Below, in pieces: positions 9,729 to 49,996 of a stretch of DNA of 51,422 nucleotides. Each line of letters starts with the position of its first letter. Position 1 is the stretch's first letter. The translations under genes and the position numbers were made by a program. Location: assembly GCA_032117235.1 (NCBI GenBank), contig JAULZW010000004.1, positions 1 through 51,422 on the forward strand. The letters run 5' to 3'. The DNA comes from Minisyncoccota bacterium (GTDB lineage: Bacteria; Patescibacteriota; Minisyncoccia; SW-4-49-11). Below the pieces are notes generated by a model, which was given only the letters and a program-made list of their open reading frames with translations, did not search any database and was not told where the DNA came from.

Positions 9729-10532
9729 ATGCTCAACTTACAATCTTTGGAGTTTTTGAGTGAATACAATCTTAATTTACCCATCTGGGGAACATCCTTT
9801 TTGTGGGCATATATTTTAGTTTTAATTTTCTCTTTAGAAAAAGCCACTAGAAAGGGGGTTTCAAAGAAAGATATATTTAATCTAGTAAGCATTGTATCTA
9901 TATGTGGAATAATTGGTGCTAGAGTAGCATATCTTCTTATTTTTCAAACAAATTTAGATTGGGTCAGTGTATTCACTTTTGGCGATATTTTTTATGATGG
10001 CAAATTAAGTGTAGTAGGAGGTTATTTGGCTGGATTCTTATCAGGCTGGTTTTATTTGCAAGGTTTTGATGTTGTTCGTAGGTCTGGTATGTCATGGTTA
10101 AGGTTTTTTGATGCTTTTTTACCTATAGCTTTAATAGGTATGATATTTGCTTATATTGGGATATTTTTTATTACTGTTAATAAAGGTGCAATCTCATCAG
10201 TAGAGTATCCGTGGTCAATTATGTTTAATGATAATTATGTACATCCATGGGCGCTATATATAGCTCTAGGATATTTGTTATTATTTAGTATTATATCTAT
10301 ATTATATGATAGATTTAATAAATTTAGAAAACCAGGTTATCTTACGTATTGCTGTTTAATAGGAATATCTTTAATTCATTTTATAACTGACTTTTGGCAA
10401 ACAACAGACTTACAATATGGATTACCACGAATTAGTGGGCTTACTATAACTCAATTAATGTCTTTAGCAACTATATTAATAATTAGTGTGGGATTAATAT
10501 TTGTAAGAACTAAAAATTCATCTAAAGAATAG
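9729..10532 (+). CDS. Lgt-like (prolipoprotein diacylglyceryl transferase family) membrane protein, divergent
   Basis: About 7 TM segments. GIIGARVAYLL and DGKLSVVGGYLAGF resemble Lgt blocks, but the central GRxGNFxNxE block is not recognisable. Confidence 0.45.
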   Translation: MLNLQSLEFLSEYNLNLPIWGTSFLWAYILVLIFSLEKATRKGVSKKDIFNLVSIVSICGIIGARVAYLLIFQTNLDWVSVFTFGDIFYDGKLSVVGGYLAGFLSGWFYLQGFDVVRRSGMSWLRFFDAFLPIALIGMIFAYIGIFFITVNKGAISSVEYPWSIMFNDNYVHPWALYIALGYLLLFSIISILYDRFNKFRKPGYLTYCCLIGISLIHFITDFWQTTDLQYGLPRISGLTITQLMSLATILIISVGLIFVRTKNSSKE

Positions 10533-10574
10533 ATATTTGTTGGATTTCTTTTATAATATATTTGCGAATTATAT

Positions 10575-38201: not shown

Positions 38202-40046
38202 ATGGCACAAGGTCAAAATTCCCATTTTGAGGCACAGCTTTTCAAGGCAGCAGATAAACTTCGTAAAAATATTGATGCAGCAGAATATAAAAATGTAGCT
38301 CTTGGACTTATTTTTCTTAAATATATTTCAGAATCTTTTCAAGAACTTTATGACAAATTAGCTCAGGATGAATTCAGTGATCCAGAAGACAGAGATGAAT
38401 ATATTGCCGAGAATATTTTCTTTGTACCCGAACAGGCAAGATGGAAAAATCTCCAAGCCAAAGCAAAACTCCCAACTATTGGACAAGAGCTTGATGAGGC
38501 AATGGAGGTAATCGAGAAAGAAAATCCCGAGCTCAAAAACGTACTACCCAAAGTATTTGGAAAGCCTAATTTAGATAAAGCTTCACTCGGACAATTGATT
38601 GACCTTATTTCTAATACAGAATTACAAGTAGAAAATACTAAATCCAACCTGCCTACCGGAGCTTCGGCGCAGGCAGGAGATTTATTTGGAAGAGTATATG
38701 AATATTTTCTTGGAGAATTTGCCAATGCCGAAGGGAAAAAGGGAGGACAATTCTATACCCCTAAATCCATAGTAAAACTAATGGTAGAAATGATAGAACC
38801 CTACAAAGGTCGTGTCTATGATCCCGCTTGTGGTTCTGGAGGAATGTTTGTGATGAGTGAAAAATTTGTACAAGAACACTCAGGAAATATCAAAGACATC
38901 ACTATTTATGGACAAGAATCCAATCAAACAACTTGGAAGCTCTCCAAAATGAATCTTGCAATCCGTAATATAAACTCACAATTTGTAGCTTGGAATACCG
39001 AAGGAAGTTTTCTCAAAGATGCACATCCTGACCTCAAAGCCGACTATATTCTCGCAAATCCTCCATTTAATCAATCAGATTGGGGAGTAGATATACTTCA
39101 AGATGATGCAAGGTGGAAATATGGAAAACCACCAGCAGGGAATGCTAATTTTGGATGGATGGAGCATATGTTATATCACCTTGCACCTCATGGAGTAATG
39201 GCAACTGTACTAGCTAATGGAAGCCTTAGCTCCAATACTTCAGGAGAAGGAGAAATCCGCAAAACTTTGATTCAATATGATTTGGTGGAATGTATCGTTG
39301 CACTCCCAAAGCAACTATTTTATAATACTGGAATACCCGCCTGTATTTGGATATTGAGAAGAGAAAGAACAACACGCCTGCCTGGCAGTCAGACAGGCAA
39401 TAAAGAAATTCTCTTCATCGATGCCTCAGATATGGGATTCCTCAAAGACCGAGTTCATAGAGAATTTACTGAAGAAGATATAGACACTATTGCCAACACC
39501 TATCATAATTGGCGAAAAAATCCTGAACAATACGAGGATATCAAAGGCTTTTGTAAATCAGCACAAAGGGATGAAGTAGAGAAACATGGTTTTGTTCTCA
39601 CTCCTGGACGCTATGTAGGGATTAAAGATGCAGAAGATGACCTGCCTGCGCCGAAGCCGAACACATTTTATGTTTATGTTATCAAATGTAGTAATGATAC
39701 CTTATATATTGGGCAAACACAAGATTTGAGGAAAAGATGGAAAGAACATATTCTAGGAAAAGCTTCTGACTGGACAAAAAAATATCCACCAAAATTTATT
39801 ATTCACCATGAAATATTCTCTACAAGAGAAGATGCAGTTAATCGAGAAAAAGAATTAAAAACAACCAATGGAAGAAGATATTTGAAAAAAATTATTGAAG
39901 ACGGATCGGCGAGGCAGGCAGGCGGAATACCATTTGAAGAGAAAATGCAAAAACTCACTACCACTCTTGCTGAGCAATTTGCCAAAGAAGAAAAAATGAA
40001 TGTAGAAATCAAAAAGCAACTTGCTAAAATTGGATTTAGTATTTAA
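38202..40046 (+). CDS. hsdM: type I restriction-modification methyltransferase subunit HsdM carrying an internal GIY-YIG domain
   Basis: HsdM N-domain ([31 protein letters not shown]), AdoMet motif [10 protein letters not shown], motif IV NPPFN, C-terminal helix [17 protein letters not shown]. At 614 aa it is ~110 aa longer than the ~500 aa usual for HsdM; the excess is accounted for by three GC-rich inserts. Confidence 0.92.
38648..38677. repeat. 30-nt GC-rich palindromic insert, family 1 (CCTGCCT...AGGCAGG), in frame in hsdM
   Basis: cctgcctaccggagcttcggcgcaggcagg, read as [10 protein letters not shown]. Its reverse complement shares its first 17 nt (cctgcctgcgccgaagc) with the left end of the GIY-YIG insert at 39641. 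Confidence 0.8.
39376..39398. repeat. 23-nt hairpin insert, family 2 (GCCTGCCTGG-n4-CAGACAGGC), in hsdM
   Basis: gcctgcctggcagtcagacaggc matches 21 of 23 nt of 44015-44037 in hsdR. The 9-nt arms pair with one mismatch. Confidence 0.75.
39641..39922 (+). mobile_element. 282-nt TIR-bounded in-frame insert encoding a GIY-YIG (URI/UPF0213-like) nuclease domain
   Basis: The left end is cctgcctgcgccga. The right end ...tcggcgaggcaggcagg has the reverse complement cctgcctgcctcgccga. The inverted terminal repeat is therefore CCTGCCTG + CGCCGA with a 3-nt indel. The cargo encodes [28 protein letters not shown]...[12 protein letters not shown]. The length is divisible by 3. It sits in the linker where ordinary HsdM reads ...GRYVG..EDD-(G)EPFEEKM.... 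Confidence 0.7.
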
Positions 40047-40058
40047 AAAATAATAAAT

Positions 40059-41063
40059 ATGCCTCAATTAACAAACTATCAAAATCTCGCTCAAGATATA
40101 ACAAAAATTCTTGAAAATGGTAGAAATCAAGCTGTATCAAATGTAAATACAATACTCCTTCAAACATATTGGAAAGTGGGAAAAAGTATTGTTGAATTTG
40201 AGCAAAAAGGAAATGTAAAGGCAGAATATGGCAAAGAATTACTCATTTCATTATCCAAAGAACTTAAAAAATATGGGAAAGGATTTAGTAGAAGCAATTT
40301 GCAGTATATGCGGCTTTTGTATATATTTTTTCCAGATTTGCCAGACAGGTCTGGCAGATTGACTTGGAGTCATTATGTGGAGATTTTGGGAGTTTCAGAC
40401 GAGCTTGCTCGTAGTTTTTATGAAAAACAATGTATCTTAGAAAATTGGTCGGTCAGAGAGCTAAAAAGACAAAAACAATCAATGTTATTTGAAAGATTTG
40501 CTCTTGGGAAAAATAAGGAAGAAATTTTGGAGCTTTCACATAAGGGGCAAACAATTCAAAAAGCACAAGATATTATTAAAGAGCCATATATTCTTGAATT
40601 TCTTGGTATACCAGAGCCTCATAATTTTTCAGAAGCTGAACTAGAACAAAAAATTATTGATAACTTGCAAATGTTTTTATTAGAACTTGGAAAAGGTTTT
40701 ACTTTTATCAAAAAGCAATTTCGCATTAGTTTTGATAGTCGTCATCATTATATAGATCTGGTGTTTTATCATCGTATTTTGAAGTGTTTTGTGCTTATTG
40801 ATCTCAAAATCGGCGAGGCTGATCATGTAGATGTAGGTCAGATGAATATGTATCTCAATTATTTCAAGACAGAAGAAAACACCGAAGGAGACAATGAACC
40901 AATCGGAATAATTCTTAGTGCTGAAAAGAATGACATCAAGATGGAATATGCAATGGGCGGAATCAGCAATCAGATGTTTGTATCTAAATATCAACTCTAT
41001 CTCCCAAAACCAGAAGAGTTAGAGGCAGAAATAGAGAATTTTTTATCTCACAATGGAAAATAA
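40059..41063 (+). CDS. YhcG-like PD-(D/E)xK nuclease (DUF1016 family)
   Basis: LTWSHYVEIL block and a C-terminal nuclease core (IDLVFYHRILKCFVLIDLKIGE). This family is often embedded in type I R-M loci. Confidence 0.8.
   Translation: MPQLTNYQNLAQDITKILENGRNQAVSNVNTILLQTYWKVGKSIVEFEQKGNVKAEYGKELLISLSKELKKYGKGFSRSNLQYMRLLYIFFPDLPDRSGRLTWSHYVEILGVSDELARSFYEKQCILENWSVRELKRQKQSMLFERFALGKNKEEILELSHKGQTIQKAQDIIKEPYILEFLGIPEPHNFSEAELEQKIIDNLQMFLLELGKGFTFIKKQFRISFDSRHHYIDLVFYHRILKCFVLIDLKIGEADHVDVGQMNMYLNYFKTEENTEGDNEPIGIILSAEKNDIKMEYAMGGISNQMFVSKYQLYLPKPEELEAEIENFLSHNGK
40339..40356. repeat. perfect 8+8 palindrome tgccagac-ag-gtctggca inside the DUF1016 gene
   Basis: Read directly. It shares the CTGGCAGA / CAGACAGG strings with the family 2 hairpins. 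It encodes DLPDRSGR where relatives usually have a short loop before LSWSHY. Confidence 0.6.
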
Positions 41064-42393
41064 TATGACAGATAAACTACAAAAAAGTAATTTTGTAAAC
41101 TCCACATCCTCGCCAACACAAAACAACAATGTGTCTTCATTGAATAATCCCGTAGAGTCGGCGCCCTCGCCGACATATTCCAACATATCCTCGCCGACAT
41201 ATCCTCAAGACTGGCAAGAGACGACTTTGGGGGAGGTTTGTGAGATCAAAGGTGGGAAGAGGTTGCCAAAAGGAGAAACCCTTGTATTAGAAAAAACAAG
41301 TCATCCATACATTCGTATAACTGATCTTGAAAATAATCAAATCAAAAAGCATCAATTACAATTTGTTACTGATGAAGCTTTTCAAAACATTTCGAGGTAT
41401 ATTGTAAATACTGGTGATGTAATTGTCTCTATTGTTGGAAGTATTGGTTTTGTTGCCTTCATTGATGAAGATTTGGATAATGCTAGTTTAACTGAAAACT
41501 GTGTGAAATTCGTTAACCTAAAAAATCTTGATTCAAAATTTTTATATTACTTTTTAATCTCAAAAAATGGGCAAGAAGAAATAGCTAAAAATACAGTTGG
41601 AGCTGTACAAAAGAAGTTGCCAATTTATGGAGTCCAAAATATTCAACTCCTCCTCCCACCTCTCCCAGAACAAAAAGCCATCGCCTCAGTATTAAGTAGC
41701 TTTGATGATAAGATTGAGCTTTTGCGAGAGCAAAATAAAACATTAGAAGAGATGGGGCAGAACATATTCAAAGAATGGTTCCTGCCTAGCCGCCCGTCTG
41801 TCGGTCGGACAGGGCAGGCAGGTGGGAAGTATGGTGTAGATAATCCTAACGACTTGCCTGAGGACTGGAGAATCGGGAAGTTGGGGGATATCTGTGAAAT
41901 TACATCAGGTAAAAGACCAGAAAATATAAGTGATACAAAAATAGGTATACAACAAATTCCGGTACTTGGAGCAACAAAAATTATGGGATATGTAGATAAA
42001 TATTTATTTGACGGAAAAACACTTGTAATTGGAAGAGTTGGAACTCATGGGGAGGTTCAAAGGTTTAATGAAAAAATATTTCCATCTGATAATACTCTAG
42101 TTTTAAAATCTGATAATTTTATTTTTGTATATCAAATTTTGAAAAGTATTGATTATGTAAAAATGAATAGAGGTGGAGTTCAGCCCCTTATTACACAAAC
42201 AGATTTGAAAAATTATGAGATTATAATTCCAAGTAATGAATTATTGAAAAAGTTCAAAGAAACAATAAATCCAGTATTCGAAAAAATAGATAAAAATAAT
42301 GTTCAAATCCAATTCCTCGCTCGAACTCGTGATGAGCTTTTACCAAAATTGATGAGTGGGCATGTGAGGGTGAATTATCAAGATAAACTATGA
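41053..42393 (+). CDS. hsdS: type I R-M specificity subunit HsdS (two TRDs)
   Basis: It has TRD1, the central conserved helix LPPLPEQKAIASVLSSFDDKIELLREQNKTLEEMGQNIFKEWF, TRD2, and the distal conserved helix (RTRDELLPKLMSG). The N-terminal ~50 aa are low-complexity and REP-derived. Confidence 0.88.
   Translation: MENNMTDKLQKSNFVNSTSSPTQNNNVSSLNNPVESAPSPTYSNISSPTYPQDWQETTLGEVCEIKGGKRLPKGETLVLEKTSHPYIRITDLENNQIKKHQLQFVTDEAFQNISRYIVNTGDVIVSIVGSIGFVAFIDEDLDNASLTENCVKFVNLKNLDSKFLYYFLISKNGQEEIAKNTVGAVQKKLPIYGVQNIQLLLPPLPEQKAIASVLSSFDDKIELLREQNKTLEEMGQNIFKEWFLPSRPSVGRTGQAGGKYGVDNPNDLPEDWRIGKLGDICEITSGKRPENISDTKIGIQQIPVLGATKIMGYVDKYLFDGKTLVIGRVGTHGEVQRFNEKIFPSDNTLVLKSDNFIFVYQILKSIDYVKMNRGGVQPLITQTDLKNYEIIIPSNELLKKFKETINPVFEKIDKNNVQIQFLARTRDELLPKLMSGHVRVNYQDKL
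41151..41174 (+). repeat. REP (GTAG + hairpin), + orientation, inside the hsdS 5' region
   Basis: cGTAGa gtcggcg ccct cgccgac, read as VESAPSPT. Right-arm half copies cctcgcc(g/a)ac also occur at 41108-41117 and 41189-41198. Confidence 0.8.
41781..41822. repeat. 42-nt GC-rich palindromic insert, family 1, in frame in hsdS
   Basis: cctgcctagccgcccgtctgtcggtcggacagggcaggcagg, read as LPSRPSVGRTGQAG. It lies directly after the central conserved helix and uses the same L-P...Q-A-G reading phase as 38648 and 39641. Confidence 0.75.
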
Positions 42394-43274
42394 GAATCTC
42401 ATCAAAAACAATAGATTACCTAAAGGACATTATCACTGGAGATTCTAAGAAAACTAGATATTTATCAGGTCCCCAGCTTGTGGAGTTTTTTAATGAGCTT
42501 GGGTGGCAAGATATATATGGACAAGGGTTTCCTAGTAGGTGGGAATATACAAAGAGAAAATTATTTGAATTAAATCAACTAGATAGGATTGAAGAAATAA
42601 TAGAGCATTATTATAGCCCAATAAATTTTATTGAAGATAAAGAGGGATATAAATATTTAATTAAAGAATTGAATGAATATCTTGCTTTTGAGGATCTTGA
42701 GCTAAAAGTGGAAACTAAAACAGTAAAATTACAACCCAAAATAAATGTCGGCGAGGGCGCCGACTCTACGAAATTCAAGGATGCCGACTGGGGAGACGAC
42801 TATACGAAACAAATTTCAATCAATTTAGAACAATTAAATATAGACCCTAAATTGACTGAAATAATAAAATATCGTTTAATAGAGATCCAAAGAGGTATAG
42901 AAAATAATTGTCCTTTATCAGTTATTATTTTAGTAGGTTCAATATTAGAAGCTGTATTTTTCGATTTAGCACATAAGAATAAGCCGTTATTTAATAGAGC
43001 ACATGCTAGTCCTAAAATTTCTGATAAAGTAAAATTTTTTGGAGAATGGACACTTGGGAACTATATTGATGTTGCAAAAGAATTGGGATATATAAAAGAA
43101 GATCAAAAAAAGTTTAGTATGATATTGAGAGATTTTAGAAATTATATACATCCATCCAAGCAATTAACAGAAGATTTTCATCCTAGCATAGATACAGCTA
43201 AGCAATGTATTTATGTATTAGAGGGTTCTATAAATCAAATTATTGCAAAGACAGAATATGAAAAGGAAAAATAA
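42390..43274 (+). CDS. hypothetical R-M-embedded protein with a C-terminal HEPN-like RxxRNxxH motif
   Basis: The start overlaps the hsdS stop (ATGA). The C-terminal helical region contains ILRDFRNYIHP. It carries an in-frame REP (VGEGADSTKF). Confidence 0.6.
   Translation: MRISSKTIDYLKDIITGDSKKTRYLSGPQLVEFFNELGWQDIYGQGFPSRWEYTKRKLFELNQLDRIEEIIEHYYSPINFIEDKEGYKYLIKELNEYLAFEDLELKVETKTVKLQPKINVGEGADSTKFKDADWGDDYTKQISINLEQLNIDPKLTEIIKYRLIEIQRGIENNCPLSVIILVGSILEAVFFDLAHKNKPLFNRAHASPKISDKVKFFGEWTLGNYIDVAKELGYIKEDQKKFSMILRDFRNYIHPSKQLTEDFHPSIDTAKQCIYVLEGSINQIIAKTEYEKEK
42747..42772 (-). repeat. REP, - orientation, inside ORF 42390..43274
   Basis: gtcggcg aggg cgccgac tCTACgaa. The 45-nt block 42744-42788 matches 43711-43755 at 41 of 45 positions. 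Confidence 0.85.
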
Positions 43275-43920
43275 TCGTTTATCAAATGATTTGTATCAAG
43301 GCGGGTATTGGTATTTTATCACCTTATGCTCTTATAATATGCAATGTATTTTTGTAGAGTCGGCGCCCTCGCCGACACAATCAAGTCAAAAATACAAACT
43401 TAATCACTTGGGGAAAATTATTGAAAAAGTGTGGTTGAATACAACTCAATGTTATTCGGATATTATTCTTGATGAATATGTTATTATGCCGAACCATTTT
43501 CATGGTATAATTGGACTTGATGAGAATTCTTGTTCTTCGGTGACAAGAAAAAAGGTGAGTTTGGGGGATGTGGTCAGTTCGTTTAAGAGTGTTTCTTTGA
43601 GGGAGTTTAAGGAGAGTGTCGGCGGGGGTGTGAGGGAAAATGTCGGCGAAGATTTGAATGACAATGTCGGCGAGGGCGCCGACTCTACGAAGTTCGGTGA
43701 TGTGAAGTACAATGTCGGCGAGGGTGCCGACTCTACGAAGTTTAAGGGTGCCGACTCTACGAAGTCTACTTTGAATAAATATGGAACTTTCTGGCAAAAA
43801 TCTTTTTATGACCATATTATTAGAAATGATAAAGATTTATTTCGTATACAGGAATATATTATAAATAACCCTATAAATTGGGAAATGGATTCTCTGCATC
43901 CTAACAACTTTAATAAATGA
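43243..43920 (+). CDS. REP-associated tyrosine transposase (RAYT; Y1/HUH, IS200-like, COG1943 type)
   Basis: It shows YWYFITLCSYN, the HUH motif in VIMPNHFHGII, the C-terminal block FWQKSFYDHIIRNDKDLFRIQEYIINNP, and the candidate catalytic Tyr in QEYIINNP. An alternative start lies at 43258. The ORF stays open despite REP-derived inserts. Confidence 0.75.
   Translation: MQRQNMKRKNNRLSNDLYQGGYWYFITLCSYNMQCIFVESAPSPTQSSQKYKLNHLGKIIEKVWLNTTQCYSDIILDEYVIMPNHFHGIIGLDENSCSSVTRKKVSLGDVVSSFKSVSLREFKESVGGGVRENVGEDLNDNVGEGADSTKFGDVKYNVGEGADSTKFKGADSTKSTLNKYGTFWQKSFYDHIIRNDKDLFRIQEYIINNPINWEMDSLHPNNFNK
43353..43376 (+). repeat. REP, + orientation, inside the RAYT gene
   Basis: tGTAGa gtcggcg ccct cgccgac, read as VESAPSPT in the same frame as the hsdS copy. 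Confidence 0.85.
43616..43763 (-). repeat. phased array of full and partial REPs inside the RAYT gene
   Basis: Left arms gtcggcg occur at 43618, 43642, 43666 and 43714. Full REPs lie at 43666-43691 and 43714-43739, with a right-arm half at 43746-43763. Spacings are 24 or 48 nt. The array reads ...NVGEGADSTKFGDVKYNVGEGADSTKFKGADSTKS. Confidence 0.85.
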
Positions 43921-43924
43921 CAAT

Positions 43925-46900
43925 ATGCCTACCCTCAACGAATCCCATATAGAACAGAATTTGATAGATCTCCTTGTAGCTCAGGGCTATGAGTATTTTT
44001 ATGGTCTGGATATTGCCTGCCTGGCTGGCAGACAGGCTCCGTATTCGGCAAGTCCACAAAGAGAAAGTTTTAATAGTGTTATATTGGAAAATCATCTCAA
44101 GGAATCTCTCAAAAGATTGAATCCAGATATCCCTGAATCGGCTCGGCATGAGGCTTATCAGCATATTATAAATCTTGGCTCTGCTGATTTGATGGCGAAT
44201 AATGAAAAATTTCATACTTATTTGACTGATGGGATTACGGTTGAATATGTCAAACCTGCCAATGAGTCAGGCGGGGATAATGCTACAAAGGGTATCAATG
44301 TTAAGCTTCTTGATTTGGAGAATGTCTCAAACAATATCTTTTGGGTGGTGAATCAATTCGTTATCAAAGAGAATAATAATGAGAAGAGATTAGATTTGGT
44401 GATTTTTGTGAATGGGCTTCCTTTGGTTGTGGTGGAGTTGAAGAATGCTACTGATGAAAAGGCTACTTTGGAGAGGGCTTTTACTCAAATTCAGAATTAC
44501 AAAAAAGCTGTTCCGAGTATTTTTTATTATAATGCTTTATGTATTATCTCGGATGGGATTGATGCTCGTATGTCGAGTGTGTCTGCTCCTTTTGAGCGAT
44601 TTGTTGCTTGGAAGTCTCCTGAGAAAAAGGAGAATGGGATTGTGCCTGAAATGCAGATTATGGCTGAAAAAATGCTTAATCCTGAGGTTTTGCTTCGATT
44701 GATTCGATATAATACGGTTTTTGAACAAGAGGAGCAAAAGGATGAAAAAACGGGGTTATTATCTGTGGTGAAGATTAAGAAAATTGCTGCCTATCATCAA
44801 TATTATGCGGTGGAAAAGGCGGTTAAGGAAACTTTGAGGGCTACTCATTCTGATGAGGGTAATAGGAAAATTGGGGTGATTTGGCATACTCAAGGTTCGG
44901 GGAAGTCTTTGTCTATGGTGTTTTATACGGGGCAAATTGTGGTGGAACCAGAGATGAAGAATCCGACTATTGTTATTTTGACGGATAGGAATGATCTTGA
45001 TGATCAGTTATTCACGACTTTTGGAAATTGTAAGCAATTATTAAGGCAAACTCCTATGCAAGCGGAAAGTCGTGAGCATTTAAAAGAGCTTCTCAAGGTT
45101 GCTGGGGGTGGTATTATTTTTACAACTATTCAAAAATTTGCTCCTCGTGAGGGGAATGTGTATGAGACTTTATCTGAGCGGTCGAATATTGTGGTTGTGG
45201 CGGATGAGGCTCATCGTAGTCAATATGGATTCAAGGGGCGAGAGGTAGAAACGGTGGATGGGTCTGAAATTCGATATGGGAATGCTAAGTATCTGAGGGA
45301 TGCTTTGCCGAGGGCTTCTTTTATTGGATTTACGGGGACACCGATTGAAAGGGAAGATAGATCTACAAGAAATGTGTTTGGTGATGAAATTGATATTTAT
45401 GATATTAAACAGGCGGTGGATGATGGGGCTACGGTGCCGATTAGTTATGAATCGCGGTTGGTTAAAATTAAATTGAATAAGGAGTTGGTCAATAAAATTG
45501 ATTATGCTATTGATGAGATTGAAGGTGCTACTGAGGAGCAAAAGGAAAAGGCGAAAAAGAAAAATGCTCAAATTGATGCGGTGGTTGGTCATCCTGATAG
45601 ATTAAAGGATTTGGCTAAGGATATTGTGGAGCATTTTGAGGCGAGGCAAAGAACCTTTGAGGGGAAGGCGATGGTGGTATGTATGACAAGGCAAATTGCG
45701 GTTTGGTTATATAAGGAAATTATTGCTCTTCGTCCTGATTGGCATAGTGATGAATTGATGCAAGGGAAGCTCAAAATTGTGATGACTTCAAGTAGTGATG
45801 ATCCTGAAGATTTTCAAGCTCATCATACGAATAAGAAGGATAGAAAAAAACTTGCTCTGAGGCTCAAGGATATCAATGATCCTCTTCAAATGGTGATTGT
45901 GCAATCTATGTGGTTGACGGGATTTGATGTGCCGTGTTTGCATACGATGTATATTGATAAAAAGATGCAGGGTGCTAATTTGATGCAGGCTATTGCTCGG
46001 GTTAATCGGGTATATAAGGATAAACCAGGAGGATTGATTGTGGATTATATTGGTATTGGTCAGGATCTTAGAAAGGCAATGGGGGTTTATACTCAAAGTG
46101 GGGGAGAAGGTCAAGCTGTGTCGGATATTGCAGAGGCAATTGCTGGTATGAAGACCAAATTTGAGATTGTGGAGCAAATGTTCCACCAGCCTTTGCCAAG
46201 TCTTCGTCTGGCAGGTGGCTTTGAATATAAAAATTATTTTAAGGCTGAGAGTAGTGAAAAATTACATATTTTATTGGGGGCTACAAACTTTATTTTGCAA
46301 AATGATAATCTAAAAAATAGGTTTTTGACGGAAGTGACTGCTTTGTCTAAGTTATTTGCGATGGCTGTTCCAAGTTTTGAGGCTGAGCAAGTAAGAGATG
46401 AAGTTGCATTCTTCCAAGCGGTTAAAGCCCGTATCAATAAATTTACACCTAGTGGGGGAGTCTCAGACAGGCAGGTCGAAACGGCGGTAAGACAAATTGT
46501 AGAAGAAGCTCTGGCGAGTGATGGAGTGGTGGATGTGTTCGAGGCTGCGGGGATGAAAACTCCGACACTGGACATTCTATCAGAGGAATTTTTGCTTGAG
46601 GTCAAAAATATGGAGCAAAAAAATCTTGCCTTTGAACTTCTTCGTAAGCTCCTGAATGATGAGGTAAAATTGCGAAAAAGAAAAAATATGGCTCAAGGAA
46701 AAAAGTTTTCTGAGATGCTTGAGAGTGTAATCAATAGGTATCATAATAATCAAATTGATACGGCTCAAGTGATTCAGGAACTTTCAGAAATTGCTCGGGC
46801 GATGAAATTGGAGGACAAAAAAGCAGAAGATATTGGACTTACTCCAGAAGAATATGCATTTTATAGTGTACTTGCTCAGAATGATTCTACGAAATTTTTA

Positions 46901-47119
46901 GATGATCATAAAATGAAAGAACTAATTCATGTTATTGTTGATATTATTCGCAAAAATGCTACAGTTGATTGGGAAAAACGAGAGGATGTTAGAGCTAAAC
47001 TTCGCCTTACGGTCAAAAAAATTCTCATGAGATATGGCTATCCACCTGATCTTGCAAGAATAGAAGCTGATAAAGTTCTGGAACAGAGTGAACTATTGGC
47101 TAAGGAATTGACGCAGTAG
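43925..47119 (+). CDS. hsdR: type I restriction enzyme R subunit HsdR
   Basis: N-terminal nuclease region, SF2 helicase motif I TQGSGKS, motif II VVADEAHRSQ, and later motifs (QAIARVNR). 1064 aa. Confidence 0.93.
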   Translation: MPTLNESHIEQNLIDLLVAQGYEYFYGLDIACLAGRQAPYSASPQRESFNSVILENHLKESLKRLNPDIPESARHEAYQHIINLGSADLMANNEKFHTYLTDGITVEYVKPANESGGDNATKGINVKLLDLENVSNNIFWVVNQFVIKENNNEKRLDLVIFVNGLPLVVVELKNATDEKATLERAFTQIQNYKKAVPSIFYYNALCIISDGIDARMSSVSAPFERFVAWKSPEKKENGIVPEMQIMAEKMLNPEVLLRLIRYNTVFEQEEQKDEKTGLLSVVKIKKIAAYHQYYAVEKAVKETLRATHSDEGNRKIGVIWHTQGSGKSLSMVFYTGQIVVEPEMKNPTIVILTDRNDLDDQLFTTFGNCKQLLRQTPMQAESREHLKELLKVAGGGIIFTTIQKFAPREGNVYETLSERSNIVVVADEAHRSQYGFKGREVETVDGSEIRYGNAKYLRDALPRASFIGFTGTPIEREDRSTRNVFGDEIDIYDIKQAVDDGATVPISYESRLVKIKLNKELVNKIDYAIDEIEGATEEQKEKAKKKNAQIDAVVGHPDRLKDLAKDIVEHFEARQRTFEGKAMVVCMTRQIAVWLYKEIIALRPDWHSDELMQGKLKIVMTSSSDDPEDFQAHHTNKKDRKKLALRLKDINDPLQMVIVQSMWLTGFDVPCLHTMYIDKKMQGANLMQAIARVNRVYKDKPGGLIVDYIGIGQDLRKAMGVYTQSGGEGQAVSDIAEAIAGMKTKFEIVEQMFHQPLPSLRLAGGFEYKNYFKAESSEKLHILLGATNFILQNDNLKNRFLTEVTALSKLFAMAVPSFEAEQVRDEVAFFQAVKARINKFTPSGGVSDRQVETAVRQIVEEALASDGVVDVFEAAGMKTPTLDILSEEFLLEVKNMEQKNLAFELLRKLLNDEVKLRKRKNMAQGKKFSEMLESVINRYHNNQIDTAQVIQELSEIARAMKLEDKKAEDIGLTPEEYAFYSVLAQNDSTKFLDDHKMKELIHVIVDIIRKNATVDWEKREDVRAKLRLTVKKILMRYGYPPDLARIEADKVLEQSELLAKELTQ
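44015..44037. repeat. 23-nt hairpin insert, family 2, in the hsdR N-terminal region
   Basis: gcctgcctggctggcagacaggc, read as ACLAGRQA. Partner at 39376-39398. Confidence 0.75.
46464..46475. repeat. half-site cagacaggcagg of the GC-rich palindrome families, in hsdR
   Basis: String match only; no paired arm found nearby. Confidence 0.35.
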
Positions 47120-49910: not shown

Positions 49911-49996
49911 GGCGACGAGAGGTCGCCCCTACGAAAAATAATGTCGGCGGGGTCGCCGACTCTACGAAATAATGGAGGGACTAAAGCCCTACGAGG
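49911..49996 (-). repeat. intergenic cluster of three hairpin+CTACGA REP units
   Basis: The three units are ggcgac-gagag-gtcgcc cCTACgaa (49911-49935), gtcggcg-gggt-cgccgac tCTACgaa (49943-49968) and aggg-actaaag-ccct-ACGA with CTAC at 49989-49992. Confidence 0.8.

Follow-up and report, generated by a model that had tools for sequence, protein, structure and literature searches.

The window analysed here is a 51-kb stretch (51,422 nucleotides, 32% GC) of the genome of a Minisyncoccota bacterium (contig JAULZW010000004.1), and the element in question is a gene for a REP-associated tyrosine transposase (RAYT, or TnpA_REP) that carries copies of a repetitive extragenic palindrome (REP) within its own reading frame and probably tolerates them in two loops of a functional enzyme. 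The gene occupies positions 43258–43920 on the forward strand and encodes 220 amino acids; its ATG overlaps the end of the upstream open reading frame (ORF), and hsdR lies directly downstream. The HUH motif (H80-F-H82 within MPNHFHGII) is encoded at 43495–43503 (+) and lies on strand 80–93 of the AlphaFold model, while the catalytic tyrosine (Y200 within EYIINNP of the Tyr helix) is encoded at 43855–43857 (+). Both H80 and H82 were invariant in an alignment of 31 sequences (A1), and among the homologues W179, Y200, and N204 were invariant and P205 and Q180 nearly so; the W/Q block reads FWQKSFYDHIIRN. The NCBIfam profile NF047646 (REP_Tyr_transpos) matched with an E-value of 8.7e-16 in two stretches split by an insert, and E. 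coli TnpA_REP (4ER8) was the sole PDB match by sequence in a family profile search, with profile positions 149–185, including the catalytic Tyr region, aligned to 4ER8 residues 86–122. The best Foldseek match was also 4ER8_A (E 5e-4, TM 0.42/0.53), followed by the ISDra2 and IS608 TnpA structures, and homologues bear the source name ‘REP element-mobilizing transposase RayT’. The protein ends 20 residues past Y200, without the conserved C-terminal extension. The ORF is an intact RAYT of the Y1 HUH transposase superfamily, and the assignment made in a preliminary description of this DNA was borne out by the HUH, W, and Y motifs, the profile match, and the 4ER8 fold.

The internal REPs occupy two sites. 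Site 1 (43351–43377, +) is a single sense REP reading TTT-GTAG-AG-TCGGCG-CCCT-CGCCGA-CA, which encodes F-VESAPSPT in the beta1/alphaA loop. Its GTAG tag lies at 43354–43357 and its hairpin, GTCGGCG-CCCT-CGCCGAC, at 43359–43376, with a 7-bp stem (arms at 43359–43365 and 43370–43376), a CCCT loop, and a folding energy of -10.2 kcal/mol (z -5.5) as DNA. Site 2 (43616–43768) lies between the long helix and beta4 and is an array in a 24-nt register. It begins with two 24-nt left-arm-only units, GTGTCGGCGGGGGTGTGAGGGAAA and ATGTCGGCGAAGATTTGAATGACA (43616–43663, +), encoding SVGGGVRE and NVGEDLND, respectively. These are followed by a first full antisense REP (43664–43694, -; hairpin 43666–43683, forward-strand CTAC 43685–43688, -9.4 kcal/mol as DNA), by a spacer that is possibly a degenerate left-arm unit (TCGGTGATGTGAAGTACAA; 43695–43711, +) and forms part of a 48-nt direct repeat (D4, 91% identical), by a second full antisense REP with one stem mismatch, C to T (43712–43742, -; hairpin 43714–43731, CTAC 43733–43736, -6.5 kcal/mol as DNA), and by a right-arm-only unit, AGGGTGCCGACTCTACGAAGTCTA (43745–43768, -; CTAC 43757–43760). 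The left arms (GTCGGCG) start at 43618, 43642, 43666, and 43714, all 10 mod 24, and the right arms (GCCGAC) at 43678, 43726, and 43750, all 22 mod 24; every arm and unit of site 2 is in the reading frame of the RAYT ORF. Tandem Repeats Finder did not report the array because the units are too diverged (identity <70%), and it was resolved by a repeat search combined with counting of arm positions in the 24-nt register.

The 24-nt REP of site 1 and the first full REP of site 2 are perfect reverse complements of each other. Positions 43351–43377 are complementary to 43665–43691 (96%) and 43713–43739 (93%), with the HUH codons in between, such that the inverted REP arms, 287–335 nt apart, enclose coding sequence. 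The 18-mer REP core, with up to 3 mismatches, occurred 7 times in the window and not once in 100 shuffles, and GTAG-tagged hairpins numbered 7 in the window versus 0.04 in shuffles; chance is therefore no explanation. The preliminary description had located these elements correctly, with REPs present at all the coordinates it claimed, in frame and 24-nt-phased, and an inverted pair flanking the HUH core. Its positions for the two extra segments also stood, whereas its sizes of approximately 12 and 55 aa were too large, as alignment to insert-free relatives gave a net extra length of approximately 6–8 aa at site 1 and 45–48 aa at site 2.

Compared with three orthologues (L081, L173, and L174; relatives are cited by locus, L, or protein, P, numbers), the core of the gene showed ratios of nonsynonymous to synonymous substitution rates (dN/dS) of 0.09–0.17, and the REP-derived parts 0.2–0.7. 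The ORF was intact in more than 15 relatives. The RAYT is under purifying selection and is not inactivated. In the AlphaFold2 model, the core had a predicted local distance difference test score (pLDDT) above 90, and residues 127–166, which correspond exactly to the array, scored below 50. The array loop is modelled between the long helix (residues 102–121) and beta4, and site 1 in the loop after beta1; the array is thus predicted to encode a disordered loop.

The length of the array varies among close relatives. Proteins at least 88% identical measured 209, 217, 225, or 233 aa in independent JGI, ENA, NCBI, and Logan assemblies, and the gaps among them (8, 16, or 24 aa) fell only in the array, the rest being almost invariant. 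In the nucleotide alignment, the alleles follow the pattern (left-arm unit)n, full REP(s), and (right-arm unit)m, with arm units gained and lost. The number of left-arm-only units differed among close relatives, and every array indel was a multiple of 24 nt, corresponding to 8-codon steps. The array thus behaves as an in-frame variable-number repeat, whose units were probably gained and lost via slipped-strand mispairing or unequal exchange between the 24-nt-spaced direct repeats. Unit gain and loss catalysed by the RAYT is less likely because of the half-units that lack a hairpin. A partial right-arm duplication 24 nt past a full REP was also observed in hsdS (41165/41189) and in the ORF at 42390–43274. 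In L172 (P0044), the loop that corresponds to the array of the window is occupied by six tandem 24-nt in-frame repeats (CAAAAAGAAACAGGATTTATCGTC; 2064–2216) without a hairpin, after which comes a duplicated AATGCATCCCCAACT; a period of 24 nt therefore recurs even where no REP is present.

The arrangement of the two sites recurs in relatives. In homologue DNA, the C-I-F codons are immediately followed by a sense GTAG-hairpin, and WQKSFYDH is preceded, at a distance of a few codons, by a hairpin-CTAC; each genome uses its own hairpin, namely TCGGCGACCCCGCCGA in L082, TCGGCGACCTCGCCGA in L085, GGAGGGTTTATCCCTCC in L001, GGGGAAAGCCCC in L168, CGGAACCCTTGCGGTTCC in L169, and GGGGCGAATTTTAATACGCC in L092. 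A sense REP before the HUH strand and an antisense REP after it thus recur with at least six different hairpin sequences. Relatives with their own sense and antisense REPs in the same two loops were 33–60% identical, and the placement of REPs is therefore old or recurrent. The earlier wording that the gene had been ‘colonised’ is misleading if taken as a recent event, although the expansion of the array is lineage-specific. The preliminary description had also considered homologous segments without REP similarity, and we found the opposite, namely segments built of the homologues’ own REPs.

Of 157 genes of homologues, approximately 20 had a best inverted repeat of 16–28 nt spanning the HUH strand, and in most it measured 7–9 nt. 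As a protein-level proxy, V-[EAGDV] followed beta1 directly in 43 of 158 relatives, in which the beta1-to-HUH spacing was approximately 10 residues longer. Remoter members carried REPs in the beta3/alphaC loop (L002, L008, L021, L102, L137, and L149), at the C-terminus, or just upstream of the gene. Two members had no inverted pair: L171 (P0032) contained only a site-2 REP and unrelated hairpins, and L172 contained the hairpin-free array described above. The REP pair arrangement is thus common, but not universal. Scans of collections of genome and metagenome contigs mostly returned canonical RAYTs approximately 30% identical among the matches listed, where L001 and L092 were the only members of the insert-bearing clade; close relatives were fetched individually. 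A different layout was observed in a Poribacteria RAYT (L002, 9857–10705), which has three 72-nt in-frame repeats in the beta3/alphaC loop, each with a sense GTAG REP; this REP also forms a tandem array immediately before the start codon, and another REP lies at the extreme C-terminus.

The REP-bounded core can also be combined with different flanks. Four loci were syntenic (CCA-adding enzyme, RAYT, small ORF, and V-ATPase subunit I) and contained two types of core, X with a TCGGCG hairpin and an H-F-H motif, and Y with a GGAGGG hairpin and an H-T-H motif. All four combinations of flank (a or b) and cassette were present, namely aX in L082 (RAYT allele at 10001–10561), aY in L001 (10001–10546), bX in L175 (10001–10561), and bY in L177 (1055–1603). 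For alleles with the same flanks and different cassettes, nucleotide identities in the upstream 900 nt, N-flank, cassette, C-flank, and downstream 900 nt were 84, 86, 50, 88, and 73% (aX-aY) and 89, 84, 53, 91, and 76% (bX-bY), respectively. For alleles with the same cassette and different flanks, the corresponding values were 82, 86, 97, 78, and 78% (aX-bX) and 81, 70, 86, 75, and 71% (aY-bY). The X cassette contained 8 mismatches in 297 positions versus 404 in 1986 outside (Fisher p 9e-18), and the Y cassette gave p 7.5e-5. The REP-bounded core therefore has a history separate from that of the rest of the gene, and the hairpin type travels along with it.

The block common to both Y alleles extends exactly from GTAG to CTACGAAATA. 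The X block overshoots the tags by approximately 20–28 nt to the left of GTAG and approximately 45 nt to the right of CTAC, ending at WYFVTIC and WQKSFYDH. Because these ends lie in conserved flanks, homologous recombination accounts for the X event no less well than tag-specific cleavage does, and the cassette exchange may have been either mediated by REPs and the RAYT or the product of ordinary homologous recombination. Assembly chimeras were rejected as the origin of the mosaic alleles, as the X cassettes differ at 8 positions and each allele was found on several independent contigs. We consider it a tentative and somewhat doubtful extension of these observations that the REP-bounded segment forms a specificity cassette complete in itself, which genomes swap at or close to the invariant GTAG/CTAC tags, perhaps through cleavage and joining by the RAYT itself, while the conserved N- and C-terminal flanks, with the GTAG-binding block and the catalytic Tyr, stay in place. 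Such a cassette would combine two copies of the cognate hairpin with the half of the enzyme that recognises it.

A screen of 93 proteins gave only one further, weaker mosaic (P0031 versus P0048). These two proteins are approximately 90% identical at both ends and through the HUH strand and differ at residues ~96–170, which comprise the long helix and the site-2 REP-derived segment (FVAEPLRF versus IVGEGLSF). Motifs of the Y type, H-T-H or H-I-H (MPNHTHLII and MPNHIHLII), were observed in L001 (10223–10240) and also in P0010, P0012, P0013, and P0015; the polar Thr at the ‘U’ position of HUH in the Y-type cassette is unusual.

Outside the RAYT gene, the window contains further copies of the same hairpin family, at 41152, 42747, and 49943, in agreement with the earlier attribution of the extra segments to a REP family. 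Four of the seven GTAG hairpins lie outside the gene: one in the 5′ part of hsdS, one in the ORF at 42390–43274, and two in an intergenic cluster at 49.9 kb. The hsdS copy (41152–41206, +) is a full REP followed by a second right arm 24 nt on (41165 and 41189). The right-arm copies at 41108, 41165, and 41189 and the REP fall within the first 52 codons of the annotated hsdS (41053–41210), and the Pfam Methylase_S domain starts at residue 51, after the REP; the true start of hsdS may be further downstream, in which case its REP would be leader and not coding sequence. The second copy (42747–42810, -) lies in frame in the middle of the ORF at 42390–43274 (NVGEGADSTKF...), with a degenerate right-arm unit 24 nt later. 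The intergenic cluster (49911–49993, -) comprises two or three different GTAG-tagged hairpins, including GTAGAGTCGGCGACCCCGCCGAC, a loop variant of the RAYT’s REP. Its hairpin types were observed in the same order and on the same strand in L081 (8006–8061), and a cluster was also present in L001 (7857–7938). Since several hairpin types are clustered, these small genomes have several REP families in an arrangement like that of bacterial interspersed mosaic elements (BIMEs). The related loci of 10–20 kb contained 0–4 further REP copies, and in them the RAYT gene was syntenic and single.

The first 37 kb of the window consist of housekeeping genes (TyrRS, NusA, PheST, DnaG, RpoD, MurD, FtsW, S2, Lon, GatA, Sua5, and DprA), and the ribosomal protein S2 was 89% identical to a Candidatus Paceibacterota protein, which places the host in the CPR/Patescibacteria. 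From 38 kb on, a defence island comprises hsdM fused to GIY-YIG, a YhcG/DUF1016 nuclease, hsdS, a 294-aa ORF, the RAYT, hsdR, an HTH-SocA protein, a RhuM-Fic protein, and a Bro-N protein. The hsdM gene (38202–40046) encodes a methyltransferase with a C-terminal GIY-YIG nuclease domain at residues 489–558. In the window (38202–47119) and in three related genomes (L081, 942–4829; L173, 5560–13864; and L174, 5358–13820), the RAYT gene is part of a type I restriction-modification operon and immediately precedes hsdR. Two remoter clade members adjoin an N6 methyltransferase or hsdS gene (L168, 4249–6508, and L172, 214–2441). The company of RAYT and restriction-modification genes could be a matter of chance in a defence island or a real association. 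No Pfam domain was found in the 294-aa ORF (42390–43274), situated between hsdS and the RAYT; its N-terminus has a weak similarity to the defence proteins Stk2 and AbiJ, and its in-frame REP lies in an apparent interdomain linker. This ORF was absent from the otherwise syntenic operons of L081, L173, and L174, in which the gene upstream of the RAYT is hsdS, and a comparison with orthologues intended to identify its REP as an insertion was therefore void.

In-frame REPs within RAYT genes are already known. Quentin et al. 2018 (BMC Genomics 19:475, PMC6006769) described in-frame REPs within tnpA_REP genes of subclass 2.4, which equals RAYT Group 4 of Bertels et al. 2017; the variable domain of this subclass holds short repeats and was seen as a peripheral extension with little effect on activity. 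The RAYT of the window appears most like subclass 2.4/Group 4, and the phenomenon as such is thus already published. The likeness comprises a Y1 HUH RAYT without the C-terminal extension, a variable HuH-Y distance, GTAG-tagged REPs inside the gene that leave the frame unbroken, short repeats in a variable region, and relatives in Cyanobacteria and scattered phyla; cyanobacterial RAYTs were 30–34% identical to that of the window, which is only suggestive of membership. The window differs from the published subclass in having one REP upstream of HUH and in its host, a bacterium of the candidate phyla radiation (CPR). The subclass 2.4 REP is long canonical, with a stem foot of three G-C pairs, or ‘double-foot’, whereas the single-footed stem in the window, GTCGGCG/CGCCGAC, starts with G-C, T-A, and C-G; stems of the GGGGCG type occur in some relatives. 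The sense/antisense bracket, the 24-nt variable-number repeat, and the cassette reassortment do not appear in the accessible text, Figure S10 aside. We found no literature on RAYTs in Patescibacteria.

Other known systems share some of these features. In-frame intragenic GTAG REPs were reported in many genes by Di Nocera et al. 2013 (PMC3733652). These GTAG/CGTC REPs and the Rickettsia palindromic elements are, like those of the window, short palindromes in frame in protein genes, often forming dimers or clusters that encode tens of residues in presumably permissive loops, and the window likewise has REPs in the 294-aa ORF and the 5′ part of hsdS. In the RAYT, however, the host gene encodes the presumed mobilising enzyme, and the placement recurs clade-wide with a hairpin that differs by genome. 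The two inverted REPs and the single RAYT with cognate REPs, together with the covariation of RAYT and REP sequences between genomes, recall REPINs and REPtrons (Bertels & Rainey 2011; Nunvar et al. 2010; Ton-Hoang et al. 2012). A REPIN, however, has a short non-coding spacer and many copies, whereas the ‘spacer’ here is 287 nt of RAYT coding sequence and no further copies of the doublet occurred in the window, and REPtron REPs flank the gene instead of lying inside it. In IS200/IS605 elements, the end hairpins are on the same strand and outside tnpA, and the unit as a whole is repeated, whereas here they are inside the ORF and in opposite orientation, and the gene is single in related loci. 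The complex of E. coli TnpA_REP with its REP hairpin (4ER8; Messing et al. 2012) shares the fold and the HUH/Tyr layout, and the conserved WQxxFxxHxIRN block aligns with its GTAG-contacting region; it differs in its sequence (approximately 15% identity), in lacking intragenic REP-encoded loops, and in the bulged stem of the E. coli REP. Contingency-type coding repeats resemble the array in that near-identical strains differ by in-frame changes in copy number, with the remainder of the gene constant, but the units of the window are half-palindromes of a mobile repeat and not simple sequence.

The best explanation, to which we assign a probability of approximately 0.65, is that an active RAYT tolerates its cognate REPs in two permissive loops, that the array drifts by slippage, and that the REP-core-REP segment is passed on, and from time to time replaced, as a single unit. 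It draws directly on the anatomy of the two sites, the selection on the gene, the copy-number variation, the conserved arrangement, and the reassortment of cassettes and flanks observed in relatives. A functional RAYT of a clade with its own REPs inside the coding sequence, here on a low-GC Candidatus Paceibacterota (CPR) chromosome, would host cognate 24-nt GTAG-tagged hairpins in two surface loops in inverted orientation, sense in the beta1/alphaA loop and antisense between the long helix and beta4. The insertions would keep the frame because the unit length of 24 nt is divisible by three and neither orientation introduces a stop codon in the frame used. The REP of site 2 would have grown into an array of left-arm units, full REP(s), and right-arm units, which would gain and lose units in 8-codon steps by slippage or unequal exchange. 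As the array would encode a disordered and dispensable loop, the enzyme would tolerate the substrate inside its own gene and would not be disabled by it. Of the three options offered by the preliminary description (inactivation by, regulation through, or tolerance of its own substrate), tolerance is accordingly the one that gained support. The RAYT presumably acts on these REPs, which may be kept at the DNA level because REP-core-REP moves as a single unit in both inheritance and exchange. The part of the enzyme specific to the hairpin would thereby stay linked to its cognate hairpin, a linkage that may be of benefit.

Several observations weigh against this explanation. Only 7 GTAG hairpins were found in 51 kb, all within 41–50 kb and none in 1–41 kb, which therefore does not demonstrate a genome-wide ‘REP’ population. 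The variable domain of subclass 2.4 lies between beta3 and alphaC (Quentin et al. 2018), whereas the inserts of the window follow beta1 and the long helix, and the beta3-helix link of the window is short and conserved. The profile scores were below the curated cut-offs (58.1 versus 80 bits for NF047646, and 18.8 versus 23 for Pfam Y1_Tnp) because the 45–48-aa insert splits the match. Part of the copy-number variation could be short-read assembly error in the repeat, although the frame was always kept and the units differ in sequence. Finally, the cassette reassortment was observed at one orthologous locus only, with two cassettes and two lineages, not in the lineage of the window, and the breakpoints of the X cassette lie in conserved coding blocks and not exactly at the tags.

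Alternatively, the intragenic hairpins, or a long-range helix of approximately 28 bp between sites 1 and 2, in mRNA or transiently single-stranded DNA, might throttle transcription or translation or bind the RAYT itself, with the copy number of the array tuning expression in the manner of a contingency locus. The region 43330–43790 folded as RNA with a minimum free energy of -143 kcal/mol (z -5.1), including a predicted long-range helix that encloses the HUH core, and each strand offers at least one GTAG-hairpin in the form recognised by RAYTs; the rapid shift of copy number between near-identical relatives and the orientation pattern kept across hairpin families would also fit. Such a helix, however, follows automatically from any inverted REP pair and would be melted by translating ribosomes, the half-units are unable to form hairpins, and relatives do well with one REP per site or, as in L171 and L172, without the pair. 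We therefore regard autoregulation as unlikely.

A second alternative, which we regard as distinctly improbable, is an active mobile cassette, in which the segment from the site-1 GTAG to the site-2 CTAC would be cut and rejoined by the RAYT at the tags, moving specificity between genomes. The presence of all four flank-by-cassette combinations at one orthologous locus, the Y block with its ends exactly at the tags, and the 97% identity of the X cassette versus approximately 80% outside are consistent with it, as is the conserved C-flank, which matches the GTAG-binding region of 4ER8 as given in the legend of Fig. S11 (PMC6006769). The X block nevertheless passes the tags on both sides and ends at conserved coding blocks, as homologous recombination predicts. 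Only a single locus family is involved, no excision junctions or circles were seen, and, as stated in the introduction of PMC8266576, transposition by RAYTs has never been demonstrated in vivo.

The inactivation that the preliminary description had listed among its three options would make the gene a decaying RAYT full of its own REPs. The low profile scores and the low-complexity insert of approximately 45–48 aa might be taken in its favour, but the window and all close relatives have an unbroken ORF, with the HUH, W, and Y motifs preserved and invariant catalytic residues, the core is modelled at high confidence, and all indels are multiples of 24 nt; the substitution ratios given above together with the intact frames rule out a decaying pseudogene, and we rejected self-inactivation as very improbable. 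Mis-assembly of the array from repeat-containing reads was rejected as hardly credible, since, despite the error-prone nature of short repeats in metagenome assemblies and homologue contigs that end near REPs (e.g., P0004, P0122, and P0129), the same architecture, with varied unit numbers and unit-specific substitutions, was found always in frame in more than 10 independent JGI, ENA, NCBI, and Logan assemblies.

Beyond Quentin et al. 2018, the present analysis adds a recurrent bracket with differing hairpins, an array of variable number, and the independence of cassette and flank at four syntenic loci, and it adds the small genomes of Patescibacteria to the range of REP/RAYT systems with intragenic REPs. 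If the REPs are only a tolerated insertion, the gene is an ordinary further example of the kind described by those authors. With cognate hairpins in its own reading frame, the gene is a compact test object that holds enzyme and substrate on one 660-bp fragment, for which the oligonucleotide form of the REP substrate is GTAGAGTCGGCGCCCTCGCCGAC, and the length variants of the array are natural deletion mutants of the inserted loop. The finding bears on how RAYTs and REPs stay matched and on whether RAYTs act on REPs in vivo. Should the exchange of cassettes be mediated by the tags, it would provide the first footprint in nature of cleavage and joining of the RAYT type. From the four-way reassortment in relatives, specificity seems to be exchangeable in modular form, which, if the cassette reading is true, would provide a concrete mechanism for a joint switch of RAYT and REP specificity.

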